Shown in pieces: positions 1,867 through 24,119 of a DNA stretch of 30,837 bases. The translations under genes were made by a program, and so were the position numbers. Position 1 is the stretch's first letter, and each line of letters starts with the position of its first letter. Source of the DNA: Nitrospirota bacterium (GTDB taxonomy: Bacteria > Nitrospirota > Nitrospiria > Nitrospirales > Nitrospiraceae). Location: assembly GCA_963703955.1 (NCBI GenBank), contig CAVPGK010000025.1, positions 1-30,837 of the forward strand, written 5' to 3'. The notes under the pieces are model-generated. The model was given only the letters and a program-made list of their open reading frames with translations. It had not been told where the DNA came from and made no database searches.

Positions 1867-2320
1867 CTAACGCTGATCGAGCGATTTCTCTTGAGCGGTA
1901 GGTTGAACCGACGAATCCTTCTGGTGTTCTTCCCGGTCGGTGTCTAGCCGACGAGCATCGACGGCTTTCTTGAGAGAGACGATGAACTCCTCCCGGTCAA
2001 GAGGCTTCTCCATGAACGCGTAAGCCCCTCCATCTCGCGCGCGCGCGGCTATCTCAGAGTCTCCGTGCCCCGTGATGAGAAGCACGGGCGTTGCGGGACG
2101 GAACGCCCGGATCTTCACCAGCAAGGTCAGGCCATCCATTTTCGGCATCTTGATGTCCGCTCACGACCGCATCATAGTCAGCCTTCGAAAGATGTTCCAA
2201 TGCCTCAGGACCGTCATGACAGGTATCGACTACGGCGTTCATGCGGAGGCGCAGGGCGTCGGACAGGGCTTCTAGGAGGGCGGGATCGTCATCTATCACG
2301 AGAATCCGAGGCATAAGCAT
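1867..2320 (-). CDS. Stand-alone response regulator receiver (REC) protein; +1 frameshift near 2158
   Basis: ILVIDDD...DYDAVVS joins D-IKMPKMDG...LLITGHG...FMEKP. One extra G next to the phospho-Asp codon splits it into two ORFs. Confidence 0.85.
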
Positions 2321-3415: not shown

Positions 3416-3741
3416 GTGGAGATCAGGATCAAAACATTTATCATGGACAGGACGTCCCCGGGTGACATCTTGTCTCGATCATTTCCCGGCGTGACCTGCT
3501 ATCTGGCAAGAGACTTTGATTGGATTTTGAGCGCTTAGATGTACTCGATCCGCTCCTCCCTCTCTGGCGTATACCTTGCAGACAAATTAGTGGGAGTAAT
3601 AGCCTTGCCGGGATGGTCATATCTCGACTCTCCCGGTTTTTGCTTTCGTGAGGATGACGCTGGAAGATGAGAGTGCGAGGATGGGCAGTGAGGACAGAGC
3701 CCTAGATGAAAGGACTCTATGAACTGCGAAGGGAGGGGAAA

Positions 3742-4354
3742 ATGGGAATGAGAATAATCAAATCAGCCATGATGCTCACAATAGTAGCGCTAGCGGCCCA
3801 ATTTGTTGTCGAGCCCCCGTCCTCAGGCCAAAGTACCGACCCCATCACGGATGGGGCAAAGGTCACGATTGCTTTTACGATCACCGTTCCCGAAACCCGT
3901 GTCGTTGTTCCCAACAATGTCAGCCAGTATGTTCCTGGGCAACGCCAACTGATCCCTGCCTTGGAGCAGGCTCTGGAACGGAATGAAGGAGGGGGCCATC
4001 AGAAGCGGGTTGACCTTGAGGCGGAAGAGGCGTTCGGGCATTACGATGAAAGAAACGAGTCACGGCAAGCCGGGAGGAATTGCCACGGGGAGCGCAGATG
4101 GGGTCCATTCAGCGAACTCCGGATGCGGTACGCCGTTCACTATTGTGTCACTGTCTGACAATAGCGCAGTGATTGACTTCAATCATCCTCTGGCGGGTAA
4201 GCATCTTGTGTTTGATGTGCGGGTTCTCAAGGTAGAACGAGGATCTGAAGACGGGATTGTCCTTTGCGCAAGAATGAGCGGTTTGCGGCGTCGGAGCGGT
4301 GAAGCTAGTTTCATCTCGTCCAGCGGGACGAGAGAAAAGGGAGGAGACTCATGA
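3742..4354 (+). pseudogene. SlyD-like FKBP-type peptidyl-prolyl isomerase with N-terminal signal-like segment; several frameshifts at ~3975-4130
   Basis: ITDGAKVTIAFTI, GQRQLIPALEQAL, GMKEG, EEAFGHYDE and VIDFNHPLAGKHLVFDVRVLKV are spread over different frames. Confidence 0.8.
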
Positions 4355-5651: not shown

Positions 5652-5850
5652 AGAAAAGCGTTCTGACTTCCGCCATAGGACGATTGGCAGTTTCCCTGCC
5701 TGTTGAGTTAACCTTCTGCCCGCTCCTTCTCAAAATCGAAGCCAAGCGCCTTGATTTTTCATGATTTCTCGCGCATCCTTCCTCCTCACTGTGCGATCGA
5801 GGCTGTGGACCCTGCAGGCTTCTCTCTCTCACTGGGGGAAATGTTTTTCC

Positions 5851-6453
5851 ATGACGAGGATGGAGCACGACGAACACCTCTTTCGGCTGCTCGTCCAGCG
5901 CGTGCACGACTATGCGATCTTCATGATTGACCCCAAGGGTCTGGTGATGAGTTGGAATGAGGGGGCACAAGCCCTCAAAGGCTACCAGGCACATGAAATC
6001 ATCGGCCAATCCTTTGAGCGCTTCTATCGCGCAGAAGATCTCCGAAACAACAAGCCCGCGCAGCTGCTTGAGGTCGCAGCCGCCCGGGGGCGAGCTGAAG
6101 ATGAAGGCTGGCGTATTCGCAAAGACGGGACCCGGTTTTGGGCGGATGTGATTATCACTGCAATACGCGACGATACGGGCGACTTGATCGGTTTTGGCAA
6201 AGTCACCCGCGACTTGACTGAGCGCCGTCGCATGGAAGAAGCCCTCCGAGAGGCAGCGCAGTCACTGGAAAACAATGTGGCAGAACGGACCCGCGAGCTT
6301 CAAGACACGAACGCAGCTCTCCAGGAGAAGAATGCTGAGCTTGAGAAGTTTGCAGATATCGTGGTCGGTCGAGAACTGGCGATGATAGACCTCGAAAGAC
6401 AGGTCCGATTACTTCAGGAGCAGTTGAAAAAGTTCCAGCCAAGTGAAAGCTAG
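5851..6453 (+). CDS. PAS/PAC sensor protein with a coiled coil and 'VVGREL' tail; no kinase domain
   Basis: DYAIFMID..WNEGA..KGY..EIIG, EDEGWRIRKDGTRFWA and GFGKVTRDLTER, then VAERTREL..ELEKFADIVVGRELAMIDLE and a stop. Confidence 0.88.
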   Translation: MTRMEHDEHLFRLLVQRVHDYAIFMIDPKGLVMSWNEGAQALKGYQAHEIIGQSFERFYRAEDLRNNKPAQLLEVAAARGRAEDEGWRIRKDGTRFWADVIITAIRDDTGDLIGFGKVTRDLTERRRMEEALREAAQSLENNVAERTRELQDTNAALQEKNAELEKFADIVVGRELAMIDLERQVRLLQEQLKKFQPSES

Positions 6454-10870: not shown

Positions 10871-11317
10871 CAGACGTGACGTTTCTTTCCGTCGCATTAA
10901 AGCGTCCACTTCTCATCGACCGAAAGGGTCTTGCCTGACTTTCACTTTGGCCTCCACAAATCTAAACATAGTATTTCGCTGCGGCTTGAAGTATCGGCGG
11001 CAATCCCTTTTCGTTGTAAAGCTTGCAGGCAGCCCGGCGATCAACAAGGCGTCGTACTTTCATCTGTTCTCCTCCTTCTTTTTTCTTTTACTATTAGAGA
11101 GTTGCCCGTCATGCTGAGAAGAGGCAGCTAAGTACGGTGAAGCCTCTTTGTCTTGATCATATGATAGAGCACTCGCTTGGACTCGGCTGTCAGTGAAATG
11201 TTTTTTTGATGTCGGTGAATGCCAGGTTTTTGGTCCTCAATCCGGACGGCGAGGATAGGTCTAGATGTGCGTACGAGACTGTGGAATTCCGGATACTGCG
11301 GGTAAGAGCGCCTTCCC

Positions 11318-11334
11318 GTCATCCTTTGTCCTAC
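11318..11334. promoter_or_regulatory. Putative regulator box GTCAT-N7-CCTAC upstream of the kinase operon
   Basis: 17-bp box ~130 bp before ATG 11464, with a weaker neighbour at 11342-11358. Confidence 0.4.
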
Positions 11335-11463
11335 ACTGAATTAGGGATTTCTGCTGACTCTGTTAAAGGCTTCCTTAGGCTATTCTCTTCTGGTTTTCCT
11401 CTTATCGAGGTGACTGTCGCATCTTCCGCTTTTTTCTGGTCAGCGTGCCAAAGGAGGCATCGC

Positions 11464-14400
11464 ATGTTAGTCAAGGAACGGCAAACAGAATCGCACCTCA
11501 ATGCTGCTGCATTGTTGACCACGCTGCAAGCCTTCGGAAAGGGCGATTTCGGAGTGCGGATGCGAGGACCGCGCACCGGTTTGGCCGGGGAGATTTCGGC
11601 TGCCTTGAATGACATTTTTGAGCAAAACGAACGCCTGAGCGAAGAGCTTGTGCGGCTGAGTAAGGCTGTCGGCAAGGAGGGCAAAATCGGGGAGCGGGCC
11701 GCGATCGGCAACATTAGCGGGTCGTGGGGCGTGTGTGTGGATTCGGTGAACTCACTGATCACCGATCTCGTCAAACCCACATCCGAGGTGACCCGCGTCA
11801 TTGGGGCGGTAGCAAAAGGCGACCTCACGCAGTCCATTTCCCTTGAGACCGACGGTAGGCCTATCAAGGGTGAGTTTCTACGCACCGCGAAACTGGTCAA
11901 TGTCATGGTGGATCAGTTGAACTCCTTCGCGTCCGAGGTGACCCGCGTGGCGCGCGAGGTGGGCACGGAAGGCAAACTCGGCGGTCAGGCGGATGTCAAG
12001 GGCGTAGCTGGCACGTGGAAGGACCTCACCGACAACGTCAATTACATGGCCAGCAACCTGACCAGCCAGGTGCGGAACATCGCGCAGGTGACCACGGCGG
12101 TGGCGACCGGCGATCTCTCGAAGAAGATTACCGTGGAAGCGCGCGGCGAAATCCTCGAGCTGAAGAACACGATCAACGTGATGGTGGATCAGTTGAACTC
12201 CTTCGCGTCGGAAGTGACCCGGGTTGCGCGCGAGGTCGGCACGGAAGGCAAGCTGGGTGGCCAGGCTATCGTGAAAGGGATGGGCGGGATATGGAAGGAC
12301 CTCACCGATAACGTCAACTACATGGCCAGCAACCTGACCAGCCAGGTGCGGAACATTGCTCTGGTGACGACTGCGGTGGCGACCGGCGATCTCTCGAAGA
12401 AGATTACCGTAGACGTGCGTGGTGAGATTCTCGAATTGAAGAATACGATCAACGTCATGGTGGACCAGTTGAACTCCTTCGCGTCGGAAGTGACGCGGGT
12501 TGCGCGCGAGGTGGGCACGGAAGGGAAACTGGGCGCTCAGGCGGATGTACGCGGAGTAGCCGGCACGTGGAAGGACCTCACTGATAGCGTCAATTATATG
12601 GCGAGCAACCTCACGAGCCAGGTGCGGAACATCGCGCAGGTGACCACGGCGGTGGCCAACGGTGACCTCTCGAAGAAGATCACGGTGGAGGTGAAGGGCG
12701 AGATCCTCGAGTTGAAGAACACGATCAACGTGATGGTGGACCAGTTGAATTCGTTCGCGAGGGAGGTCATCCGAGTCGCTCGCGATGTCGGGACAGAAGG
12801 CAAGCTCGGTGGGCAGGCCGAGGTGCGGGGCGTGGCCGGCACGTGGAAGGACCTCACCGATAACGTCAACTGGATGGCCGGCAATCTGACGAGCCAGGTG
12901 CGGAACATTGCCCAGGTGGCGACGGCGGTGGCCAGCGGCGACCTGTCGAAAAAGATCACCGTGGAGGTGAAGGGCGAGATCCTGGAGTTGAAGAACACGA
13001 TCAACGTGATGGTGGATCAGTTGAATTCGTTCGCATCGGAGGTGACGCGTGTTGCCCGCGAAGTGGGCACTGAGGGCAAGCTGGGTGGGCAGGCCGAGGT
13101 GAAAGGCGTGGCCGGAACCTGGAAAGACCTCACCGACAACGTGAACCTTATGGGCAGCAACCTGCGAAACCAGGTGCGGAACATTGCCCAGGTGGCGACG
13201 GCGGTGGCCAACGGCGACCTCTCGAAAAAGATCACCGTCGAAGTACGCGGCGAGATTCTCGAATTGAAGAACACGATCAACGTGATGGTGGATCAGTTGA
13301 ACTCCTTTGCCTCGGAGGTGACCCGCGTCGCGCGTGAGGTCGGCACGGAAGGAAAGCTCGGCGGCCAGGCGGTCGTCAAAGGGGTGGCCGGCACGTGGAA
13401 GGACCTCACCGACAACGTCAACTATATGGCCAGCAATCTCACGAACCAGGTGCGGAACATCGCCGGTGTGACGACGGCGGTAGCCAACGGCGATCTGTCG
13501 AAAAAGATCACGGTGGAGGTGAAGGGCGAGATCCTGGAGTTGAAGAACACGATCAACGTGATGGTGGATCAGTTGAACTCGTTCGCGTCGGAGGTGACGC
13601 GCGTCGCCCGCGACGTAGGCACGGAAGGAAAGCTCGGCGCCCAGGCGGTCGTCAAAGGGGTGGCCGGCACGTGGAAAGATCTCACCGATAACGTCAATCT
13701 CATGGCGAGCAATCTGACCAGCCAGGTGCGGAACATCGCCGGCGTGACGACGGCGGTGGCCAACGGCGATCTGTCGAAAAAGATCACGGTGGAGGTGAAG
13801 GGCGAGATCCTGGAGTTGAAGAACACGATCAACGTGATGGTGGATCAGTTGAATTCGTTCGCGTCGGAGGTGACGCGTGTTGCCCGCGAGGTGGGCACCG
13901 AGGGCAAGCTGGGCGGACAGGCCGAGGTGAAAGGCGTGGCAGGAACCTGGAAGGACCTCACGGATAACGTGAACTCGATGGCCGGCAATCTCACCAGCCA
14001 GGTCCGAGGGATCGCGAAGGTCGTGACCGCGGTCGCGAGCGGCGATCTCAAACGAAAACTCACGGTGGAAACGAAAGGTGAAATCGCGGCATTGGCCGAT
14101 ACGATCAACGAAATGATCGAGACGCTCGCGACGTTCGCCGATCAGGTCACGACCGTCGCGCGCGAGGTGGGCACCGAGGGCAAACTGGGCGGACAGGCCA
14201 AGGTGCCGGGCGCTGCCGGTCTCTGGAAAGATCTCACGGACAACGTTAATCAGCTCGCCGCCAACCTGACCAATCAGGTGCGCGCGATCGCGGAGGTTGC
14301 GACCGCCGTCACCAAGGGTGACCTAACCCGGTCCATTGCCGTCGAAGCGCTGGGCGAAGTAGCGGCCTTGAAAGACAACATCAACGAGATGATCCGCAAC

Positions 14401-17253
14401 CTCAAGGAAACGACGCAGAAGAACACGGAACAGGACTGGCTGAAGACCAACTTGGCCCAGTTCACCAACAAAATGCAGGGGCAAAAGAATCTGACGACTG
14501 TCGCCAATCTCATCCTATCGGAGCTTACGCCCCTGGTTAATGCGCATCACGGCGTCTTCTATCTTAATGAACCCGCGGATGGAACCCCGGTGATGAAGCT
14601 GCTCGGCAGTTACGCCTATCGCGAACGCAAAGGCCTGCCGACTCAGTTCAGGGCCGGGGAGGGACTTATCGGGCAATGCGCGCTCGAAAAGGAGCGTATT
14701 GTGATGACCGATGTGCCCTCGGATTACATCCAGATCAGCTCGGGGTTGGGCAATGCCTCGCCGTATAACATCGTGGTGCTTCCCGTGCTGTTCGAGGGCG
14801 AGGTGAAAGCCGTCTTGGAACTCGCATCCTTCAATCGGTACAGCGACATCCACCTGACCTTCCTTGACCAGCTCAAACAGACTATCGGGATCGTGTTGAA
14901 TACGATCGCTGCGAACATGCGGACGGAAGACTTGCTGAAGCAGTCCCAAGCGCTGACGGCCGAGTTACAAAGTCAGCAGCACGAGCTCAAGACCACCAAC
15001 GAGCGGCTGGAGCGACAGGCCGAGACACTTCGAACCTCCGAAGACCTGTTGCGGACGCAACAAGAAGAGCTACGACAGTCCAACGAGCAGTTGGAAGAGA
15101 AGGCCAATCTGCTCAGCCAGCAGAATATACAGGTGGAAACGAAAAACCGAGAGGTCGAAGAGGCGCGTAAAGCGCTCGAGGAAAAGGCCGAGCAGTTGGC
15201 CCTCTCCTCCAAATACAAGTCCGAATTCTTGGCGAACATGTCCCACGAGCTACGGACACCGCTCAACAGCCTATTGATTCTCTCCAAGCTGTTGGCCGAC
15301 AACCGCGACGGGACGCTGACCCCTAAACAGGTCGAATTCGCGCAGACCATCCAGGCGTCCGGCAGCGATTTGCTGGCGTTGATCAACGACATTTTGGATC
15401 TGGCCAAGATCGAGTCAGGCACGATGGGAGTGGCGGTCAACTCGGTAGGCTTCGCCGAACTGACCGATTATGTGGATCGAACCTTCCGTGAGGTGGCTCA
15501 GAATAAAGGACTGACTTTCGACATCGAGCGCATTCCGGGATTGCCCTCCGCAATTCAGACCGATCCTATGCGGTTGCAGCAGGTCCTCAAGAATCTGATT
15601 TCCAACGCGATCAAGTTCACGTCGCACGGGACCGTATCCTTGCGTATCGAAAAAGTGTCGTCCGGCTGGGACCGTGGACATATGGTGTTGAATCAGGCCG
15701 ATGCCGTCCTGGCCTTTTCCGTGACGGACACGGGTATCGGCATTGCGGCCGATAAGCAGAAAATTATTTTCGAAGCCTTCCAACAAGCTGATGGGACCAC
15801 GAGTCGAAAGTACGGTGGAACAGGCTTGGGTCTCTCGATCAGTCGAGAGATCGCCAGGTTACTCGGTGGAGAGATCCAAGTCCGGAGCACGGTTGGAAGA
15901 GGCAGCGTGTTTACCTTCTATCTGCCACGCGTGTACAGCCCGGCAGTCGTGTTGCCTCGAACGTCGGTCCCGGTGCTCATCTCCAAAGAGACCATTCCTG
16001 TTCCTACTGCTGGACCTGCGCAGGTAGAATTGGTGGCGCCGGTGGAGATTTCGGACGATCGATCGAATATCGAGACGGACGATCGAGTCTTGCTGATCGT
16101 TGAGGACGATACGTCCTTTGCCCAAATTCTGTTGGATCTCGCACGCGAGAAGGGCTTCAAAGGATTGATCGCGACGAGCGGGGAGGCCGGTTTGGGCCTA
16201 GCGCGGAGGTTCAAACCTGCCGCCATGACCTTGGACCTCTGTTTACCAGACAAGGATGGCTGGACCATTCTGGACCGATTGAAACACGACCCGCTCACCC
16301 GCCATATCCCGGTCCATATCATCTCCGTCGAGGAGGCGCGGCAGCGCGGCCTCAAACAGGGGGCAATCGGCTATCTCAACAAGCCGGTCAGCCGCGACTG
16401 GTTGGAAAAGGCGTTCGATGACATGGTGTCCTTCATTGAACGGCCGGCCAAGAACCTTCTCATCGTGGAAGACGATGAGGCTCAACGACGCAGTATTCTG
16501 GAGTTGATCGGCGGCGGAGATGTGCAGACGACCGCCGTAGGTTCCGGCGCCGAGGCTATCGAGGCGTTGAGACACGGTTTCTTTGACTGCCTGGTCTTGG
16601 ACCTTCGATTGCCCGACATGACAGGTCAGCACCTCATCGAAACGATTCACAGTGAGTTCGGCCGGCGAAATCTGCCGATCATCGTCTACACCGGCAAAGA
16701 GTTGTCCCGAAATGAGGAGAGTCAGCTCAAAAAACTGACGGAGGCCATCATTATTAAAGATGTCCGGTCGCCGGAGCGTCTCCTCGATGAAACTTCACTG
16801 TTCTTGCATCGCGCCTCTCACAGCTTGGCTACCTCTCAACAGCGGATGCTCGAGCAACTGCACCAGATGGATCCGGCCCTCGCCGGCAAGAGGGTTCTCA
16901 TTATCGACGACGACATTCGGAACATCTTTGCGCTCACCAGCGTGCTGGAGACGCACGAAGTGCAGGTGATATACGCGGAAAACGGTCAGGATGGGATTGC
17001 ACAACTGACCCAAACACGTGGTATCGACGTGATTCTCATGGATATCATGATGCCGGATATGGATGGGTACCAGACGATGCAGGCGATTCGAAAGATGCCG
17101 GAATTTGCCTCACTGCCCATTATTGCGGTAACGGCGAAGGCGATGAAAACAGACCGCGCCAAGTGCATTGAAGCCGGCGCGTCGGACTACATTTCCAAGC
17201 CGGTCGATCCGGAGACGCTGGTGTCTTTGCTGCGAGTGTGGTTGTACCGATAG
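11464..17253 (+). CDS. Poly-HAMP hybrid sensor histidine kinase (HAMP array-GAF-coiled coil-HisKA-HATPase-3xREC), OsaA/Nik1-like architecture
   Basis: AGGAGG RBS at ATG 11464. 92-aa repeats, GAF ([12 protein letters not shown]), H-box [12 protein letters not shown]-box [23 protein letters not shown], and three REC domains each retaining Asp. No TM segment seen. Confidence 0.95.
11905..14388 (+). repeat. Intragenic tandem array of nine 276-bp (92-aa) poly-HAMP units, preceded by one degenerate unit
   Basis: Unit starts at 11905, 12181, 12457, 12733, 13009, 13285, 13561, 13837 and 14113, at an exact 276-bp period. Confidence 0.95.
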
Positions 17254-17256
17254 CGG

Positions 17257-18120
17257 ATGCTGAGGAGTTTAGAGATCGTGCAATCGGTGCATGAATCCAT
17301 TGTGGAGGAGGCCGAAGTCCGTTTACTGTTAGATGGGCTACTGCATTGTTATGGATTCGATTTCCGCGAGTATGAGCCGACTTCGCTCAAGCGGCGCATC
17401 TGGGAGCAAGTTCATGCGGAGGGTCTCCGGACGATTTCAGGATTGCAGGAAAAGATCTTGCACGATTCTCCGTCGTTGGAACGCTTGTTATTATCCCTCT
17501 CGGTGCGTGTCTCTCCCATGTTTACCGACTGCGCCTTTTATCGGACCTTCCGGGCTGCCATTGTGCCGATCCTACGCACCTATCCCTCAATCGATATTTG
17601 GTTTCCGGCCTGCTCGACCGGCGAGGAGGTCTATGCGTTGGCGATTGTCCTGCATGAGCAGGGGCTTTCTCACAGAGCTCGATTATACGCGTCGGACCTC
17701 AGCGAAGCCGTTTTCAGAAACGCCAAGGATGGGCGGTTCGCGCTTAGGGACATGGCAGAAAGTGCAGTGAACTATCGGCTTGCTGGGGGAATGGGTCTCC
17801 TCTCGGACTATTACGCTATCGAACGTGAGCACGCCGTGATGTTGCCTAAGCTCAAGGACAACATCGTGTTCAGCGAGCATAGTTTGGCAACGGACGCCGG
17901 CTTCCACGAATTCCAAACCATTGTGTGCCGAAAGACCTTATCCTCATTCAATGACGGGTTGCGTGAACGAGTCCATGCCTTGTTCGTACAGAGCTTGAGT
18001 CGTTTCGGCGTTCTGGGACTCGGCAATGACGACCTGACGGCTTGGCAGATGGACGCCCATCGGTATGAAGTGATCGGAAGCGGCTGGTGCCGGAAGACGG
18101 CCGTATGTATGGAGGTCTAA
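17257..18120 (+). CDS. cheR: CheR-family methyltransferase-like protein with degenerate active-site motifs
   Basis: YGFDFREY..SLKRRI, CSTGEEVY, LYASDL. However, FRD is FTD and CRNVLIYF is CRKTLSSF. Confidence 0.85.
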   Translation: MLRSLEIVQSVHESIVEEAEVRLLLDGLLHCYGFDFREYEPTSLKRRIWEQVHAEGLRTISGLQEKILHDSPSLERLLLSLSVRVSPMFTDCAFYRTFRAAIVPILRTYPSIDIWFPACSTGEEVYALAIVLHEQGLSHRARLYASDLSEAVFRNAKDGRFALRDMAESAVNYRLAGGMGLLSDYYAIEREHAVMLPKLKDNIVFSEHSLATDAGFHEFQTIVCRKTLSSFNDGLRERVHALFVQSLSRFGVLGLGNDDLTAWQMDAHRYEVIGSGWCRKTAVCMEV

Positions 18121-19125
18121 ATGACGTCCGCGAAGCAACAGAGTCGACAAGGAATGGAAACTCTGCCCGGATGCCTCAACCCTTCCGGAAAAGCGGCCAT
18201 CCTTATTGTTGATGACAATGCTCAGAATCTGATGGCCCTTGAAGCCATTCTGGCCGGGCCCGATCGCAATGTGATGGCGGTATCCTCCGGTGAGCACGCG
18301 TTGAAATATCTGTTGCAAGAGGAGTGTTGTGTGGTGGTCCTGGATGTAAAAATGGAGGGGCTGGATGGATACGAGACTGCGGCACTGATCCGCAGTCGTG
18401 AGCGAACGCGCGATCTCCCGATCATTTTTGTGACCAGTTATAGTAAAGAGGAGGCGGACGTCATCAAAGGCTACTCCTACGGCGCGGTCGACTACATCTT
18501 CAAACCGATCGTCCCGGAAATCCTGCTCTCCAAGATCAACGTCTTCGTGGAATTGTACAAGAAAAGGGCGGACCTAAAGCGCAAGAACGAGGAACTGGAG
18601 CGGGCCGAGACTGAATTGATGCGAACCAAGGCGGCGGAAAGTTTGATCAAGCATGCACCGGACCCGCTGTTCGTGTCGGATCTGCAAGGTCATATCCTTC
18701 AAGTGAATGACGCCGCCTCAGACCTGCTGGGCCTCCGCGCAGAAGAATTAGTCGAGCAATCTATCTCACAGTTTATTCCGCCGCAGGAGACGCAGGAATT
18801 CATCGGCGCGCTGCGGGAGGTTGTCGAGCGAGGGGTCACCCGCAACCTACGCCTGAATCCCCGAAACTCCGTGGGCGAGATTATCCCTACCATGCTCAAT
18901 GCGTCCGCCTTGCGGGACCAGGAAGGGAAAGTAATCGGGGCGATCGGCATTTTAAGGGATATGCGCGCCTACGAGGCGGTGATGCGCGATCTTGAGAAGT
19001 CGCAAGCCTCATTGATCGACAAGATCCGTGACCTCGAGAAATTCGAAGAAGTGGTCGTGGGACGAGAACTCAAGATGATAGCCATGGAAAAAGAACTGGC
19101 GAAACTCAAAAGAGGTGAGGCCTAG
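18121..19125 (+). CDS. REC-PAS protein with a 'VVGREL' tail; no kinase or DNA-binding output
   Basis: ILIVDD..VLDVKM..FVTS..FKP, a coiled coil, PAS (APDPLFVSD..VNDAA..GILRD), then DLEKFEEVVVGRELKMIAMEKEL. Confidence 0.9.
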   Translation: MTSAKQQSRQGMETLPGCLNPSGKAAILIVDDNAQNLMALEAILAGPDRNVMAVSSGEHALKYLLQEECCVVVLDVKMEGLDGYETAALIRSRERTRDLPIIFVTSYSKEEADVIKGYSYGAVDYIFKPIVPEILLSKINVFVELYKKRADLKRKNEELERAETELMRTKAAESLIKHAPDPLFVSDLQGHILQVNDAASDLLGLRAEELVEQSISQFIPPQETQEFIGALREVVERGVTRNLRLNPRNSVGEIIPTMLNASALRDQEGKVIGAIGILRDMRAYEAVMRDLEKSQASLIDKIRDLEKFEEVVVGRELKMIAMEKELAKLKRGEA

Positions 19126-23100: not shown

Positions 23101-24119
23101 TTGCGGAAATTCGCTTTTTGGTGGTCGCTGCTGAAGCAGACGTTTGTCGAGTGGAATCTCGACGGCGTGCCTCGGTTGGGAGCAGCCTTGGCGTACTATA
23201 CCGTCTTCTCGATGGTGCCGCTTCTGGTCGTGATCATCGCAGTCGTGGGGATGGTGTTCGGACAAGAGGCGGCGCAAGACTACATCATAGTGCAGATCGA
23301 AGGGCTGGTAGGTCCGCAAAGCGCCTCGGCAATCCAAGAGATGCTGGAGTATGCCAATCGCCCGTCGAGCGGAGTTCTGGCCGCCATCGTCGGAATTGCT
23401 ACCTTGCTCCTGGGCGCTTCGGGGTCTTCGGCCAGCTCCAAGACGCGCTGAACACCATCTGGGATGTTGAGGCCAGGGAAGGCAAAGGCCTTCTAGGGGT
23501 GATCAAGGATCGATTCATCTCTTTTTTGGCTGTACTGGGTAGCGGCTTCTTGCTCACCGTTTCGCTGATTTTCAGCGCGTGGCTCGCGGCGTTTGGAAAG
23601 CTGTTTGAAGCCTGGTTGCCCCTTCCTGAAATCCTGCTGGAAGGTCTCAATTTCGGCATATCTTTCGCGGCGATCACCGTCTTGTTCGCCATGATTTTTA
23701 AAGTGCTTCCCGATGCAAAGATCGCTTGGAAGGATGTCTGGGTGGGCGCGGCGATGACGTCGCTGCTGTTCACGCTCGGAAAGTTTGCACTCGGTCTCTA
23801 TCTTGGAAAGAGCGACATCGGAACAGCATACGGGGCAGCCGGCTCTCTGGTCATTGTCCTGGTGTGGGTCTACTATTCTGCACAAATCCTTCTCTTCGGA
23901 GCCGAGTTTACATTCGTGTATGCCGATCGGATCGGATCACGCATTATTGCCCAAAAACACGAGGGTCAGGCTTCGCAACGATTTCCCTTCGAGAGTCATA
24001 CTCCGGCATACTCGCGCTCGGAGTCAGCGCCGGGCCGCATGGCTATACCGGGCTGGATCCCCACGACGCTTGTGTTCGTGATGGTGACGATGCGACTGAT
24101 TCATCGATCGGGCCGATGA
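23101..24119 (+). CDS. YihY/virulence factor BrkB family membrane protein; single frameshift in a G-run near 23421
   Basis: PRLGAALAYYTVFS...LLGAS joins GVFGQLQDALNTIW...KVLPD...YGAAGSLVIVLVWVYYSAQILLFGAEF. Confidence 0.88.

Follow-up and report, generated by a model that had tools for sequence, protein, structure and literature searches.

The stretch of DNA analyzed here (the window) comprises 30,837 nucleotides of contig CAVPGK010000025.1 from a Nitrospirota assembly (GCA_963703955.1), a genome of 3.3 Mb that is 82% complete. It contains two genes whose products end in the same short helix, here called the tail (Table 1). In the shorter product, in which a domain search found no catalytic domain, the tail is joined to a PAS domain by a coiled-coil linker that we take to be an S-helix. 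The longest form of this open reading frame runs from 5761 (230 residues) to the stop at 6453, and the start is probably at 5851 or 5860 rather than at 5761, because three homologues with ∼90% identity are 199-200 residues long. The other product has a REC domain as well as a PAS domain (stop at 19125), and the order hybrid kinase, CheR, REC-PAS-tail is also present in a relative (G003, locus L112). Judged from this gene order, the hybrid kinase is the likely phosphodonor upstream of the REC-PAS-tail protein. The two chains end 26 (copy 1) and 19 (copy 2) residues past the tail arginine.

The CheR gene in the window follows the hybrid kinase with no adjoining CheB gene. The surroundings of these genes (8340-30656) resemble a general-stress island, with what are presumably genes for Lon and for hemerythrin-like, BON, DUF748-like and AI-2E-like proteins. 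Elsewhere in the window, genes at 1867-2320 (minus strand) and at 375-1713, 3706-4354 and 23101-24119 (plus strand) appear to be broken across two or three frames, which is consistent with one-base assembly errors; we take these to be a receiver, a lipase-like, an FKBP-like and a YihY-like gene.

Table 1. Tail genes, tail copies and associated features in the window and elsewhere in the source genome
Feature	Coordinates	Strand	Basis or remark
PAS - signalling helix - tail gene, soluble ∼200-aa product	5851..6453	+	PAS_9, E 1.6e-15
PAS domain	5914..6222	+	Pfam PF13426, residues 52-154 of 230-aa ORF
Coiled-coil linker of signalling-helix type, PAS to tail	6223..6336	+	Sequence
Tail ('plug') helix, copy 1	6337..6414	+	Invariant Arg-Glu at 6370-6375, Arg codon 6370-6372
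Hybrid histidine kinase	11206..17253	+	Long repeat region, HisKA (15217-15420), HATPase, three REC domains
CheR-type methyltransferase between hybrid kinase and REC-PAS-tail gene	17257..18120	+	Pfam CheR, E 5.8e-20
REC - PAS - tail gene, 334 aa	18121..19125	+	Last in run hybrid kinase, CheR, REC-PAS-tail
Tail ('plug') helix, copy 2	19030..19107	+	Invariant Arg-Glu at 19063-19068, Arg codon 19063-19065
Third tail copy, PAS plus tail	C5:62939-63685
Fourth tail copy	C12:8114-8278 (L002:7115-7279)		42-54 aa frame, nearly tail alone

The initial annotation of the locus had pointed to the resemblance of the two tails, and the resemblance is real: the copies starting at 6337 and 19030 are identical at 13 of 20 positions, and at 16 of 34 over the wider helix. 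Among ∼3.57 million 20-residue windows from the six-frame open reading frames of the whole genome, the best match outside the four tail copies reaches 9 of 20. The PAS domains of the two proteins, which had been called dissimilar, are indeed distant (25% identity over 116 residues) but nevertheless related. In the frame that holds the fourth copy, the tail Gly is replaced by Glu and the frame overlaps the start of an unrelated 497-residue gene; it could be a remnant, or a free peptide able to compete for the partner helices described below.

A large family of C-terminal helices

The tail is a C-terminal helix with the consensus ELExFxxxxVGRELxMxELK. At E ≤ 0.001, a profile built from 26 diverse tails matched the representatives of 18,962 clusters at 50% identity, of which the best 150 were viewed individually; at E 1e-10 it matched 3,339 cluster representatives. 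Searches against Pfam, NCBIfam and PDB sequences gave no family above the cut-off and only weak generic coiled-coil matches, so that no described domain could be assigned to the tail from these three collections; the ESM Atlas returned unnamed short clusters with a best score of 0.91. A genome scan yielded a sample of at least 79 loci, the labels of which include Verrucomicrobia, Nitrospirae, Planctomycetes, Bacteroidales, Acidobacteriota, Deltaproteobacteria, Betaproteobacteria, Chloroflexi and Patescibacteria, together with methanogens and Heimdallarchaeota.

Conservation was assessed in 467 distinct tails chosen by the tail profile, with eight gapped matches skipped. The Arg and Glu of the motif are essentially invariant (Arg ∼100%), and Leu-10, Phe-7, Val-2, Leu+2, Met+4, Leu+7 and Lys+8, numbered from the Arg, are conserved at 84-96%. 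The C-terminal half follows an a/d heptad pattern (Met+4, Leu+7, Ile/Val+11, Leu+14), and the outer Val, Leu and Ile of the tail are also conserved. Codons vary freely, with all six Arg and all six Leu codons in use and the two Glu codons at 59 and 56, and selection therefore acts at the protein level.

The tail lies within 90 residues of the C-terminus in 424 of 455 distinct cases. In 23 of the 31 internal cases it is followed in the same chain by a second conserved helix, the socket (see below), sometimes after a linker of a mere 30 residues. The modules found upstream of it are PAS, GAF, REC, HAMP, Cache, PocR, MEDS, solute-binding and CheB/CheR domains. No HisKA, HATPase or GGDEF family is listed for any of the 240 best database matches, and only one of 355 database tail proteins contains kinase motifs in a motif screen; the homologues screened almost never continue into a normal kinase, a possibility that had been considered. 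Among the 87 tail genes of the loci, a kinase occurs later in the chain in two, both with other domains and a socket in between. Because sensor, REC or CheB/CheR modules precede the tail and kinase domains are nearly always absent, it occupies the usual position of a kinase core. The original view that the two proteins are not random truncations is thereby borne out, the tail being a conserved modular C-terminal helix outside the families catalogued in Pfam, NCBIfam and the PDB.

Some database proteins (P0123-P0127, P0243-P0258, P0330 and P0344) are fusions in the order sensor, tail, linker, (PocR), socket, PAS, tail, an arrangement suggestive of daisy-chained sensors. A single-chain model of the tail-linker-socket fusion P0330, computed from a five-sequence alignment, predicts both motifs to be helical, both tails to be unbroken helices and the linker to be disordered (pTM 0.25, mean pLDDT 64 overall).

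Relation to the DHp helix

The tail had been placed where the DHp helix of a PAS-kinase would begin, with a similar start and no His. This description agrees with profile comparison: hhalign aligns the tail with the S-helix/DHp junction of ELxxF-type kinases (probability 86%, score 25.3, 15 columns), compared with at most 10.6 for 30 column shuffles, and Arg takes the place of His. The strong stretch stops at the Phe; beyond it there is a one-residue insertion, after which VGRELR is aligned to VSHDLR. In the 467 distinct tails, a phospho-acceptor His is absent both at the Arg-equivalent position and at the preceding Gly, no Pro occurs in the ten positions after the Arg and there is no second helix.

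The likeness to the junction at HisKA (DHp) helix 1 therefore consists of the position after a PAS domain and signalling helix, the spacing of Leu, Asn, Leu and Phe, and the similarity of VGRELR to VSHDLR. Unlike a DHp, the tail has no His, Pro, second helix or ATPase, contains one extra residue, and continues as a zipper and stops. On the strength of these alignments it may derive from the S-helix/DHp junction, but it is not a DHp.

Gene neighborhood and the socket helix

Gene neighborhoods were counted for 87 tail genes in 73 of the 79 loci, the tail gene having been lost in the other six by the automatic gene pick. An adjacent kinase gene lies downstream of the tail gene in 26 of 79 cases and upstream in 5 of 69. 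The tail gene and the next gene share a four-base start-stop overlap in 19 of 65 same-strand pairs, compared with 6 of 74 control pairs. Kinases of the HisKA, HWE/HisKA_2 and HisKA_3 types are all found downstream of tail genes, so that the DHp surface is not their shared feature; this speaks against docking on the DHp itself.

The socket is part of the coiled coil that immediately precedes the catalytic core in separately encoded kinases; in the inspected kinases of archaeal tail genomes it is recognizable as one more helix, placed between signalling helix and DHp. Its motif, RRAxLNxxED, recurs among bacterial loci, where it is found in each of the three kinase classes, with the variant RRAxxHxxxD in the subtype to which the window genome belongs, and like the tail it has invariant polar residues (Asn/Asp). 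Pfam and the PDB gave no match to it, at most a weak generic coiled coil, and scores for the socket region in the ESM Atlas were below 0.9. The socket also occurs as 21-residue tandem repeats in kinases without any sensor; at L128:8278-9477, L129:3607-4638, L007 and L009 the input region of the kinase consists solely of 3-7 such repeats, and these kinases come directly after multi-PAS-tail genes.

A socket is present in 49 of the 79 tail loci and in the first downstream kinase in 32 of 55 cases (compared with none of the nine complete kinases that lie upstream or on the opposite strand), although both in-locus counts are partly circular because the profiles were built from kinases adjoining tail genes. 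The first downstream kinase itself is without a socket in 23 of 55. In a few loci the socket stands ahead of HD-GYP-type domains recognized by eye (L012, L123:6146-7153), and the output is therefore not confined to kinases. Clustering of the neighbors over the 79 loci gave no third recurrent family, the largest clusters other than kinases and receivers comprising four loci. CheR or CheB genes or domains are present in some tail loci. In one operon-like run (L121, G051:C21:32000-51999), a socket kinase, CheR and two hybrid kinases accompany five tail genes, and in two loci (L047:1756-4239, L063:2887-4338) KaiC-like and KaiB-like genes, assigned by eye, come directly after tail genes.

A candidate partner in the source genome

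The initial annotation had suggested that the tail might plug into a kinase. That part stands insofar as tail genes are genetically tied to histidine kinases; the partner it named, the DHp of the window hybrid kinase (15217-15420), is not supported, since a socket search found no socket helix in that protein, which is therefore probably not the docking partner. The best socket match in the genome (E 0.024) is a kinase on another contig (G000:C11:285404-286426, minus strand), referred to as the C11 kinase. It has no sensor, and its N-terminus consists of four variant sockets with spacings of 21, 28 and 21 residues, His replacing Asn in three of the four. The four repeats are nearly invariant in the best 120 of 4,544 homologues, and Pfam assigns to these and to the C11 kinase either HisKA/HATPase families only or none. 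We regard the C11 kinase, which is unlinked to the tail genes, as the candidate partner of the tails in the window genome.

Among 31 relatives, a socket kinase occurs once each in exactly the three tail-bearing genomes (the source genome G000 with four tail matches, G003 with nine and G006 with eight) and in none of the other 28, although these three may be one clade; without G006 the count is 2 of 2 compared with 0 of 28. The contig that carries the kinase has no tail match in G000 or G003. The C11 gene (285126-286426; L210:7127-8427, minus strand) contains a one-base frameshift before the ATPase domain. This is likely to be an assembly error, because the G003 socket kinase has an unbroken frame (416 aa) and because three public runs each include one contig in which a single base is added at the frameshift site. 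One RNA run also contains contigs across the gene, although contigs cannot show transcription. A REC-HisKA_3-HATPase gene lies downstream of the C11 kinase.

Co-occurrence of tail and socket

Tail and socket were counted in three sets of genomes, which are often incomplete and within which kin are not independent. The archaeal set consists of 201 genomes of ∼1 Mb from the phylum of G226, which we infer to be DPANN-like. Here tail and socket are each found in 37 genomes and together in 35, each occurring alone in two, so that the socket is present in 35 of 37 tail-positive and in 2 of 164 tail-negative genomes. Up to eight tails occur per genome, and HisKA is found in 58 of the 201, mostly as a single copy; none of the 21 genomes that have HisKA but no socket carries a tail. 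In these small genomes the pair is accompanied nearby by only a stand-alone receiver and variable binding proteins. Among the exceptions, a contig edge coincides with the end of the G572 tail gene, and short contigs hold the socket kinases of G566 and G615. G491 (L284-L286) has three tail genes, and searches for HisKA and socket found neither; it is either a counter-example or an incomplete assembly.

In the Patescibacteria-labelled set (phylum of G225, n = 251, G383 included) the tail is found in 28 genomes, the socket in 25, both in 23 and HisKA in 213, with the socket in 23 of 28 tail-positive compared with 2 of 223 tail-negative genomes. Of the five tail-only genomes, four have a divergent socket recognized by eye; in the remaining one the contig ends within the gene that follows the tail gene. 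The phylum of the source organism itself (n = 201), for which the tail and socket searches used differing profiles and thresholds, gave 37 genomes with tail, 30 with socket and 28 with both (28 of 37 tail-positive compared with 2 of 164 tail-negative), leaving 9 of 37 tail-positive genomes without a socket match. The socket profiles were trained on tail-adjacent kinases, and divergent sockets in tail-negative genomes may have been missed, because the general profile missed the variant of the window genome. Since tail and socket genes are usually neighbors, the co-occurrence may also reflect the transfer of one cassette.

Charge and covariation

In 132 canonical pairs the net charge of the core is +2.2 for the tail and -1.3 for the socket. 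The window-genome subtype has the opposite pattern (tail -1.0; sockets +0.9, 0.0, +1.1 and +1.1), as does the window genome itself (tails -1 to -2, sockets +1 to +2). Direct contact would predict such a joint reversal, yet the swap is a single evolutionary event, seen in one subtype of near-identical sequences. Both halves of this subtype, tail and socket, carry names from Nitrospiraceae and Ktedonobacteraceae, and the names of close homologues suggest that the host belongs to the Nitrospiraceae. Tail and socket charge show a weak negative correlation over the 132 pairs (rho -0.22, kin not independent). Mutual information between columns of the two helices, computed over the 132 pairs (effective 98), yielded no consistent register; the offsets were scattered and appear to follow lineage.

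Proposed mechanism and alternative explanations

The tail is a real, large and unnamed module, and the genomic evidence that it has a specific partner is strong. The motifs and their positions, the co-occurrence, the gene order, the fusions and the charge pattern lead us to a model in which tail and socket probably associate as a mixed coiled coil or four-helix bundle and so plug many separate sensors into one kinase. The physical mechanism, that is, binding, its geometry and stoichiometry and whether it would activate or inhibit the kinase, is inferred from sequences. The tail would be a docking helix ('plug') at the end of sensor-only proteins, and its partner the socket helix upstream of a kinase core or, in a few loci, of an HD-GYP-type domain. 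The coiled coil would be parallel, or part of a four-helix bundle, with the signalling helix of the sensor in line with that of the kinase, and a change in a PAS, REC, GAF or HAMP domain would pass through the signalling helix to the kinase as it would in a single fused chain. With many plugs for one socket kinase in a genome, signals would be integrated. In the window genome, four dispersed tail genes would feed the single sensor-less, four-socket C11 kinase; the 5851-6453 protein would be a plug-in sensor, and the REC-PAS-tail protein, by its gene order, would convey to the C11 kinase the state of the hybrid kinase encoded upstream. More tentatively, and with slightly less than even confidence, the pair may be a general standard of bacteria and archaea, in which any plug sensor could dock to any socket kinase or phosphodiesterase, tandem sockets would read several sensors, proteins with both socket and plug would daisy-chain, and charge-swapped subtypes would act as insulated channels.

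The plain a/d heptad in the C-terminal half of the tail would also suit a self-associating leucine-zipper cap that dimerizes output-less sensors or pairs different ones, the socket being a fellow member of the same cassette with no contact to the tail. Such a cap would accommodate the finding that only GCN4-type and designed coiled coils resemble the tail in the PDB (E ≥ 0.012), that tail and socket genes often adjoin and that the socket was not detected in some tail genomes. It is nonetheless unlikely: the invariant Arg-Glu, the conserved outer Val, Leu and Ile, the sensor-less socket-repeat kinases, the co-retention of unlinked genes and the joint charge reversal are left unexplained, and the sensors are left without an output. 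More doubtful still is the strict form of the initial idea, a pseudo-DHp (His to Arg) that exchanges strands with DHp helix 1 of a kinase and blocks autophosphorylation in the manner of RetS-GacS. Its strong match is confined to the 15 columns up to the Phe and gives way to an insertion with no Pro and no second helix; moreover, the downstream kinases come from unrelated DHp classes, and HisKA is a poor predictor of the tail (213 of 251 Patescibacteria-labelled genomes have HisKA, compared with 28 with a tail). These points have to be set against the hhalign score (25.3 compared with ≤ 10.6, with VGRELR aligned to VSHDLR), the kinase genes that come after tail genes and the heteromeric DHp pairing described in PMC8498467.

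We rate lower again an arrangement in which tail and socket belong to one system and each binds a third component, or in which Arg/Glu and Asn/Asp are modification or ligand sites. The invariant polar residues of both helices, the CheR or CheB in some loci and the missing covariation register would fit, but the 79 loci hold no further recurrent neighbor family (largest clusters, four loci) and the small archaeal genomes keep the pair with only the stand-alone receiver and variable binding proteins nearby. That the tail DNA or RNA is a recoding or recombination site fusing the sensor gene to the downstream kinase gene is very improbable, despite the frequent four-base start-stop overlaps (19 of 65). 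A frameshift or other DNA-level site was rejected on the free use of codons and on the state of the frames past the stop (open for more than 100 codons in 16 of 110 cases for the -1 frame and 13 of 110 for the +1 frame), and neither window gene has a coupled downstream gene.

Significance and comparison with known systems

Literature searches, in which subscription journals were thinly covered, returned nothing relevant on tail or socket when made by motif and no description of the tail/socket pair among the matches listed when made by topic. If true, docking of the tail to the socket would provide an output for 'PAS domain S-box' and other kinase-less proteins, which together make up a very large set (18,962 clusters at 50% identity). 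It would then also suggest, in a concrete form that can be tested, how REC-PAS and PAS proteins without an output domain pass on their signals, a question that PMC5847659 leaves standing for archaea. The use of up to eight separate sensors by 1-Mb archaea that have a single histidine kinase would be accounted for, and a natural pair of helices of ∼35 residues that couples sensor and kinase in trans would be a ready part for modular biosensors. If the binding is real, it would come close to a new kind of wiring.

In chemoreceptor-CheW-CheA arrays, many receptors with one conserved output helix act on one kinase. The tail system would be alike in logic, with many sensors, one output helix and a single kinase. 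It is unlike the arrays in that no recurrent adaptor family occurs among the tail neighbors, the kinases are ordinary HisKA, HWE and HisKA_3 proteins and Pfam gives no match to the MCP signalling domain (MCPsignal) on either window protein. Helical hetero-pairing of kinases is represented by RetS-GacS, where, according to PMC8498467, RetS is a full kinase that pairs through its DHp. Kinase activity under the control of a helical interface with a second signalling protein is what is predicted for the tail as well; the tail protein differs in that it lacks a kinase core and that its candidate docking site is found upstream of, not in, the DHp.

Archaeal REC-(PAS)n regulators have been described as having no obvious output domain, with protein-protein interaction proposed and targets unidentified (PMC5847659). 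The 18121-19125 protein has the same REC-PAS layout. The available text names no tail motif or partner; that study sought new output domains of at least 70 residues, and the tail, at about 35-45 residues, falls below this size cut-off.

Close parallels are H-NOX/HqsK and NosP/VpsS, in which a separately encoded sensor feeds a cytosolic kinase without a sensory domain of its own, NosP being co-cistronic with its kinase (PMC6769237). The likeness is that sensor and kinase are encoded apart and that the C11 kinase has no sensory domain. Those systems use single dedicated NO sensors, and Pfam finds PAS and REC domains only in the window proteins, with no H-NOX or NosP haem domain. Here, by contrast, one short helix is found on many unrelated sensor types, several per genome and often unlinked, and the kinase bears a matching, sometimes repeated, helix.
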